From the sequence record OR062946.1: DNA of 64,000 nt. One strand, written 5' to 3'. Below the pieces are notes generated by a model. The model had not been told where the DNA came from. It saw nothing but the letters and a program-made list of their open reading frames with translations, and made no database searches. Of this stretch, positions 24,913-25,368 are shown piece after piece. Within the stretch, counting starts at the first letter, position 1, and each line of letters begins with the position of its first letter. The DNA is from Escherichia phage 310Ecol104PP. Position numbers and translations under genes: made by a program.

Positions 24913-25368
24913 TTATTTTAAATCATCTGCCCAATCGAGTTTAAGAGGCTCTTTGTATTCACGGTCAAGTACAACCGGAATTTGTACATCACCGCTAAAT
25001 GATAAGGGCCCAACATTATAAGACAATGTTATATGCGGTGTGTAATCATCAAAATCATGTGTAGCACCTAGTGCTCGCGCATACATGTGTCGACAGCGCA
25101 GATATTCAGAATCTAGCACAAGTACAAGAGTCGATCCATCTTGTGTTTTCCATACTTCTAAATGTCCAGAAGAAGCTACTTCAAAACTTCCACTCGATGG
25201 AACATATGGAACATTTACTCTTGAATAACATATGGTCGAATGAATTTTTTCTCTAGGAACTGGATTAGGAACACGTAAAGAGCGCTGGAGTTCTTCCAGC
25301 GCATCAAGTGTTAATTCTGAAAACTTAGCTGCTACATAAAGACCCGTTGAAAAGTCTTTAAATTCCAT
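24913..25368 (-). CDS. 57B: 2H-phosphoesterase-fold protein at the gene 57B position (Acb1 anti-CBASS cyclic-nucleotide phosphodiesterase in T4)
   Basis: 151 aa directly downstream of 57A; two H-x-T/S-x motifs (HSTI, HITL); T4 57B is recalled as Acb1. Confidence 0.8.

Follow-up and report, generated by a model that had tools for sequence, protein, structure and literature searches.

Does the small open reading frame (ORF) that follows gene 57A in Escherichia phage 310Ecol104PP (OR062946.1) encode an enzyme directed against CBASS signals, or an enzyme of RNA repair? We investigated this question in a 64,000-nucleotide stretch of the phage DNA (hereafter the window), which is a segment of a Tequatrovirus genome corresponding to approximately 50.7-114 kb of T4. 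The T4 proteins nrdC.11 to 57B are colinear with the window, mostly at 93-100% identity, and the best database phages, for example Bas39 FriedrichMiescher, are approximately 97% identical over 25 kb. From two H-x-T/S motifs and the position downstream of 57A, the initial annotation of this DNA had predicted an Acb1-type 2H phosphoesterase with anti-CBASS function in the place of T4 57B. The exact coordinates of the ORF, both motifs and the adjacency to 57A were confirmed (Table 1), and the gene order 1-57A-57B is that of T4, with acb1 lying downstream of 57A as in Tevenvirinae genomes. The two genes are also annotated side by side in the related phages within the matched region.

The product of the ORF was identical to residues 2-152 of T4 gp57B/Acb1 (NP_049750.1) at all 151 positions, and the six codons that differ between acb1 and T4 57B are all synonymous (0 non-synonymous). 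The Pfam Acb1 profile (PF23474) matched over its full length (1-144 of 144) with E=2.6e-60 and 202.7 bits, against a curated cut-off of 27 bits, and equally clear matches were obtained to PHROG 755 (E=5e-68) and to the structure of Erwinia phage FBB1 Acb1 (PDB 7T26, E=4e-62), whereas no family model matched in a search of NCBIfam. These results support the family and the anti-CBASS prediction of the initial annotation. Only two H-x-T/S motifs occur in the protein, HST (residues 43-45) and HIT (residues 112-114). Since 16% of composition-preserving shuffles of the Acb1 protein also contain two or more such motifs, the pair on its own is weak evidence and we did not rely on the motif count alone; the identification is strong because of homology, namely the matches to Pfam Acb1 and PDB 7T26 and the 151/151 identity to T4 gp57B.

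All residues with an assigned role were found in the expected positions. The catalytic tetrad H43/T45/H112/T114 is in place, following the T4 numbering minus 1 (H44/T46/H113/T115), the nucleotide-contact residues Y11, W73, F106, E140 and W146 are all present (T4 Y12, W74, F107, E141 and W147), and the C-terminus with its lid segment is complete to K151. The catalytic His motifs, on whose alignment with Acb1 the initial annotation had staked its reading, line up exactly with those of T4 and also with those of FBB1 Acb1 and 9Q2G. No sequence feature contradicting an Acb1 identity was found in the ORF. We put the probability that this ORF is acb1 of Tequatrovirus, coding for a small 2H phosphoesterase that would degrade the cyclic-nucleotide signals of CBASS, at about 0.97; identity, motifs and synteny are observed directly, and the chemistry and phenotype are those expected from published work on T4 Acb1. 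The gene is thus already known, an intact copy of the characterized T4 enzyme, and the call is correct but ordinary. Two plus-strand ORFs inside acb1 (61 and 47 aa) were without support and were dismissed.

Table 1. Positions in the window of acb1, its motifs, neighboring genes and signals, and of the other loci discussed in the text
Feature	Position	Strand	Details
acb1 (T4 gene 57B) CDS	24913..25368	minus	151 aa plus TAA stop; ATG start
First catalytic motif, H43-S44-T45 (T4 H44/T46)	25234..25242	minus	codons CAT TCG ACC
Second catalytic motif, H112-I113-T114 (T4 H113/T115)	25027..25035	minus	codons CAT ATA ACA
Gene 57A, tail-fibre assembly chaperone	25368..25610	minus	80 aa; Pfam GP57 E=5e-51; T4 alignment; directly upstream of acb1
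Gene 1, dNMP kinase	25610..26335		adjoins 57A
T4 late-promoter consensus TATAAATA	25966..25973	minus	candidate late promoter for a 57A-acb1 transcript; inside gene 1, ~356 nt upstream of the 57A start
Early-promoter-like cassette, GTTTAC...17 nt...TACTAT	24858..24910	minus	just 3' of acb1; promoter scan 24899-24871, TG extended; repeat family D2/D3
Site of T4 ipI	23802-24910	minus	three small CTS genes in place of the single ipI
CTS gene	24570-24842	minus	90 aa; PHROG internal head/virion protein family
CTS gene	24201-24509	minus	102 aa; PHROG internal head/virion protein family
CTS gene	23899-24135	minus	~74 aa from MKTYQKF; PHROG internal head/virion protein family
tRNA cluster	22025-22853	minus	10 genes vs 8 in T4: Arg, Asn, Tyr, CAT-anticodon tRNA, Thr, Ser, Pro, Gly, Leu, Gln
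Interval between vs.8 and e	14953-15860	minus	denV-ipII-ipIII in T4; here only two different CTS proteins
CTS protein	15472-15789	minus	105 aa; between vs.8 and e
CTS protein	14982-15455	minus	157 aa; between vs.8 and e
vs.8 homologue	14304-14952	minus	two aligned pieces in different frames, residues 1-35 vs 26-219
vs.5 homologue	13431-13605	minus	two aligned pieces in different frames, residues 1-17 vs 17-58
vs.4/Acb2 homologue	13128..13391	minus	sponge-type anti-CBASS gene; 95.5% identical to T4 Vs.4; Pfam Acb2_Tad1_hairpin E=8e-20
regB	12329..12787		Pfam REGB_T4 E=1e-68
Macro-domain gene (T4 tk.4 homologue)	10978..11442	minus	Pfam Macro E=6e-8

T4 57B is the founding Acb1; activity-guided fractionation traced the degradation of 3'3'-cGAMP in infected cells to its product (Hobbs et al. 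2022, PMC9117128). According to the same work, the catalytic tetrad is H44/T46/H113/T115 and the H44A/H113A mutant is inactive; Y12, W74, F107 and W147 provide base stacking, E141 reads the adenine N6 and the bound ligand is covered by a C-terminal lid (residues 145-152), while structures of FBB1 Acb1 display a 2H phosphoesterase fold (PMC9117128). The reaction is metal-independent and proceeds in two steps via a cyclic phosphate intermediate, with the cut 3' of adenosine yielding GpAp; T4 Acb1 does not cleave cA4 or 3'2'-cGAMP, and it blocks the cAAG-dependent activation of Cap4 (PMC9117128). In T4 infection the activity appears from ~15 min, and T4 delta-acb1 shows a loss of >300-fold on CBASS hosts and otherwise normal growth (PMC9117128). 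An independent transposon screen likewise found 57B to be conditionally essential when the host carries CBASS (10.1101/2025.11.20.689424).

Because the protein is identical to T4 Acb1 and all catalytic and contact residues are present, this mechanism is expected to carry over. The enzyme would bind 3'-5'-linked cyclic di- and trinucleotides with at least one adenosine, i.e., 3'3'-cGAMP, cUA, cAAA and cAAG, and would, like T4 Acb1, cut these four 3' of adenosine and leave cGG uncut. The HxT/HxT tetrad would perform metal-independent acid-base catalysis, in which the adenosine 2'-OH would attack the 3'-5' bond; a 2',3'-cyclic phosphate would form as the intermediate and be converted into a linear product with a 3'-phosphate such as GpAp. 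With the second messenger removed, the CBASS effectors (Cap4, Cap5, CapV) would stay inactive, and the infected cell would therefore not be killed before the phage cycle is complete.

An enzyme of RNA repair, of the LigT/2'-5' RNA ligase type and acting on 2',3'-cyclic phosphate RNA ends, for instance in tRNA repair, has to be weighed against this assignment. The label 'RNA ligase' is indeed attached to T4 57B in RefSeq and to PHROG 755, although it represents a transfer at the level of the superfamily and no tested function. The 2H fold is common to RNA-ligase-type enzymes, and a phage tRNA cluster lies 2 kb from acb1. The match to Pfam 2_5_RNA_ligase2 (PF13563) is only partial and remains below threshold, at 13 bits and E=0.11 against a cut-off of 27 bits, and the score for Pfam Acb1 exceeds it by 190 bits. 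In addition, it is the identical T4 protein that degrades cyclic oligonucleotides in infected cells, and T4 lacking it is impaired specifically on CBASS hosts and otherwise grows normally (PMC9117128; 10.1101/2025.11.20.689424), which renders a role in RNA repair very improbable.

A different objection accepts the enzyme as intact but regards it as a net liability or a neutral passenger in the hosts of this phage, its degradation of cA3 and other cyclic nucleotides triggering the guard systems Panoptes types I and II rather than chiefly protecting against CBASS. The BASEL Tevenvirinae Bas35-37, in which acb1 is intact, are restricted by Panoptes, and escape is seen for Bas43, whose acb1 has a natural nonsense mutation, and for Bas35 escapers with mutations in acb1 (PMC13577387). 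The triggering of Panoptes, however, follows from the same enzymatic activity, depending on the host, and is not a different function. The same protein is found at ≥99% identity in 498 phage records and only synonymous changes separate the gene from that of T4, which speaks for purifying selection having maintained the activity. We consider the passenger interpretation extremely improbable and retain the assignment as a predicted anti-CBASS Acb1.

Relative to T4, acb1 differs at its start. At the junction with 57A (25368-25371, minus strand) a G-to-A change turns ATGATG of T4 into ATAATG and the 57A stop codon from TGA into TAA; the overlap of the two genes, ATGA in T4, is thereby shortened, and the ATG of acb1 and the TAA of 57A have one base in common (TAATG). 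Because the change destroys the first annotated ATG of T4, the protein here begins at T4 Met2. Both forms of the junction occur in relatives: the 152-aa form in T4 and Bas39 (459-nt gene), and the 151-aa form here and in phage 236Ecol005PP, whose 456-nt gene is annotated 'anti-CBASS protein Acb1'. Exact-pattern scans of IMG/VR for the start-codon variants returned 2 matches for the variant of the window and 1 for that of T4, too few to gauge frequencies. The absence of the annotated first Met of T4 is probably of no consequence. It is very unlikely, though conceivable, that the G-to-A change alters translational coupling and hence the dosage of Acb1, and that dosage is under balancing selection between the evasion of CBASS and the triggering of decoy-guard systems such as Panoptes.

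The TAATG junction suggests that translation of acb1 may be coupled to that of 57A. Promoter assignments near acb1 are consensus matches only, and the informative signals are restricted to the T4-specific late motif and the repeated early-promoter cassettes; sigma-70-like sites around acb1 are not enriched (15 found vs 13.1 expected from shuffles), and no intrinsic terminator was found in a scan around the gene. The late consensus TATAAATA inside gene 1 occurs in T4 at the same relative position (4006-4013 of the T4 segment compared), and we infer that it may serve as the late promoter of 57A-acb1. Its conservation fits the reported middle/late expression of 57B (10.64898/2026.03.30.715471) and the onset of activity at ~15 min. 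On this reading, acb1 and 57A would probably share a transcript in the middle/late phase, with translation of acb1 coupled to that of 57A. The early-promoter-like cassette just 3' of acb1 is predicted to drive the next gene, for a CTS protein, and to mark the edge of the hypervariable internal-protein locus. The cassette itself is common to T4, and similarity to T4 ends right after it.

At the site of T4 ipI, an approximately 110-nt cassette, consisting of an early-promoter-like GTTTAC...TACTAT, a ribosome-binding site (RBS) and a CTS-coding start, precedes each of the three CTS genes, and four copies were found in all, including one before the trna.4 homologue. This suggests a hypervariable locus in which cassettes have been shuffled as modules. 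Several other loci of the window also depart from T4 (Table 1). The vs.8-e interval is occupied by denV-ipII-ipIII in T4 and by a pair of other CTS proteins in the window; tblastn gave no match to denV (pyrimidine-dimer repair) within the window even at E=10, and the gene could lie elsewhere in the genome. The tRNA cluster is larger than that of T4, and the T4 homing endonuclease genes segB and mobD had no match within the window. The split alignments of the vs.8 and vs.5 homologues suggest frameshifts or starts different from those of the T4 annotation.

The initial annotation had also regarded acb1, the macro-domain gene, regB and the CTS proteins as a dense set of candidate counter-defence genes. 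All of these genes are present, with five CTS proteins, but the set needs to be revised at two points: RegB has no known counter-defence role, and vs.4/Acb2 had been overlooked. In the T4 record RegB is described as an endoribonuclease cleaving a subset of T4 mRNAs at GGAG, and to our knowledge it has no part in counter-defence. The five CTS proteins start with the capsid-targeting sequence (CTS) MKT(Y/F)(Q/K)(E/K)FI, and we know of no target for these internal proteins. The macro-domain gene is only 57% identical to T4 Tk.4, with the flanking tk, vs, vs.1 and regB at 97-100%; judged from this difference, the allele has either diverged sharply or been exchanged, within a block that is conserved elsewhere. 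T4 vs.4 has been named acb2 (10.64898/2026.03.30.715471), and PMC10312549 describes Acb2 as a sponge for cyclic di- and trinucleotides, which it sequesters. On homology, the phage carries both known T4 anti-CBASS genes, acb1 and acb2.

Many database records still label the gene 'hypothetical protein' or 'RNA ligase', and the value of the present assignment lies in the correct annotation, as the name Acb1 predicts host range. The presence of intact acb1 and acb2 predicts resistance to CBASS signaling by 3'-5'-linked, adenosine-containing cyclic di- and trinucleotides, and, with acb1 intact, sensitivity to guard systems of the Panoptes type is predicted as well (PMC13577387). What is known of the Acb1 family is unchanged by this copy.

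Compared with known systems, the locus is closest to that of T4, with which it agrees in all 151 residues of gp57B, in the neighboring genes 1 and 57A, in strand order and in the late-promoter motif in gene 1; the downstream neighbor of 57B in T4 is ipI, whereas here three other CTS internal-protein genes follow. FBB1 Acb1, for which crystal structures are available (PDB 7T26/7T27), is 68% identical to the ORF product over 142 residues with one gap of a single residue. Both of its HxT motifs (HTT/HIT) and its C-terminal lid segment align with the protein, and its contact aromatics differ conservatively, with F for W73 and Y for F106. Even in the much more distant solved Acb1, 9Q2G, the motifs HVT/HLT align with both HxT motifs found here. 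The protein has in common with the wider 2H superfamily (LigT/2'-5' RNA ligase, CPDase) both H-x-T/S motifs, and the two-lobed fold, reported for the FBB1 protein, is predicted for it from the identity to 7T26; LigT-type enzymes act on RNA ends, whereas the substrates of Acb1 are cyclic oligonucleotide signals. Acb2 (T4 Vs.4), encoded in the same window, serves the same purpose of neutralizing CBASS signals but belongs to an unrelated family (Pfam Acb2_Tad1_hairpin) and sequesters the signals that Acb1 cleaves.
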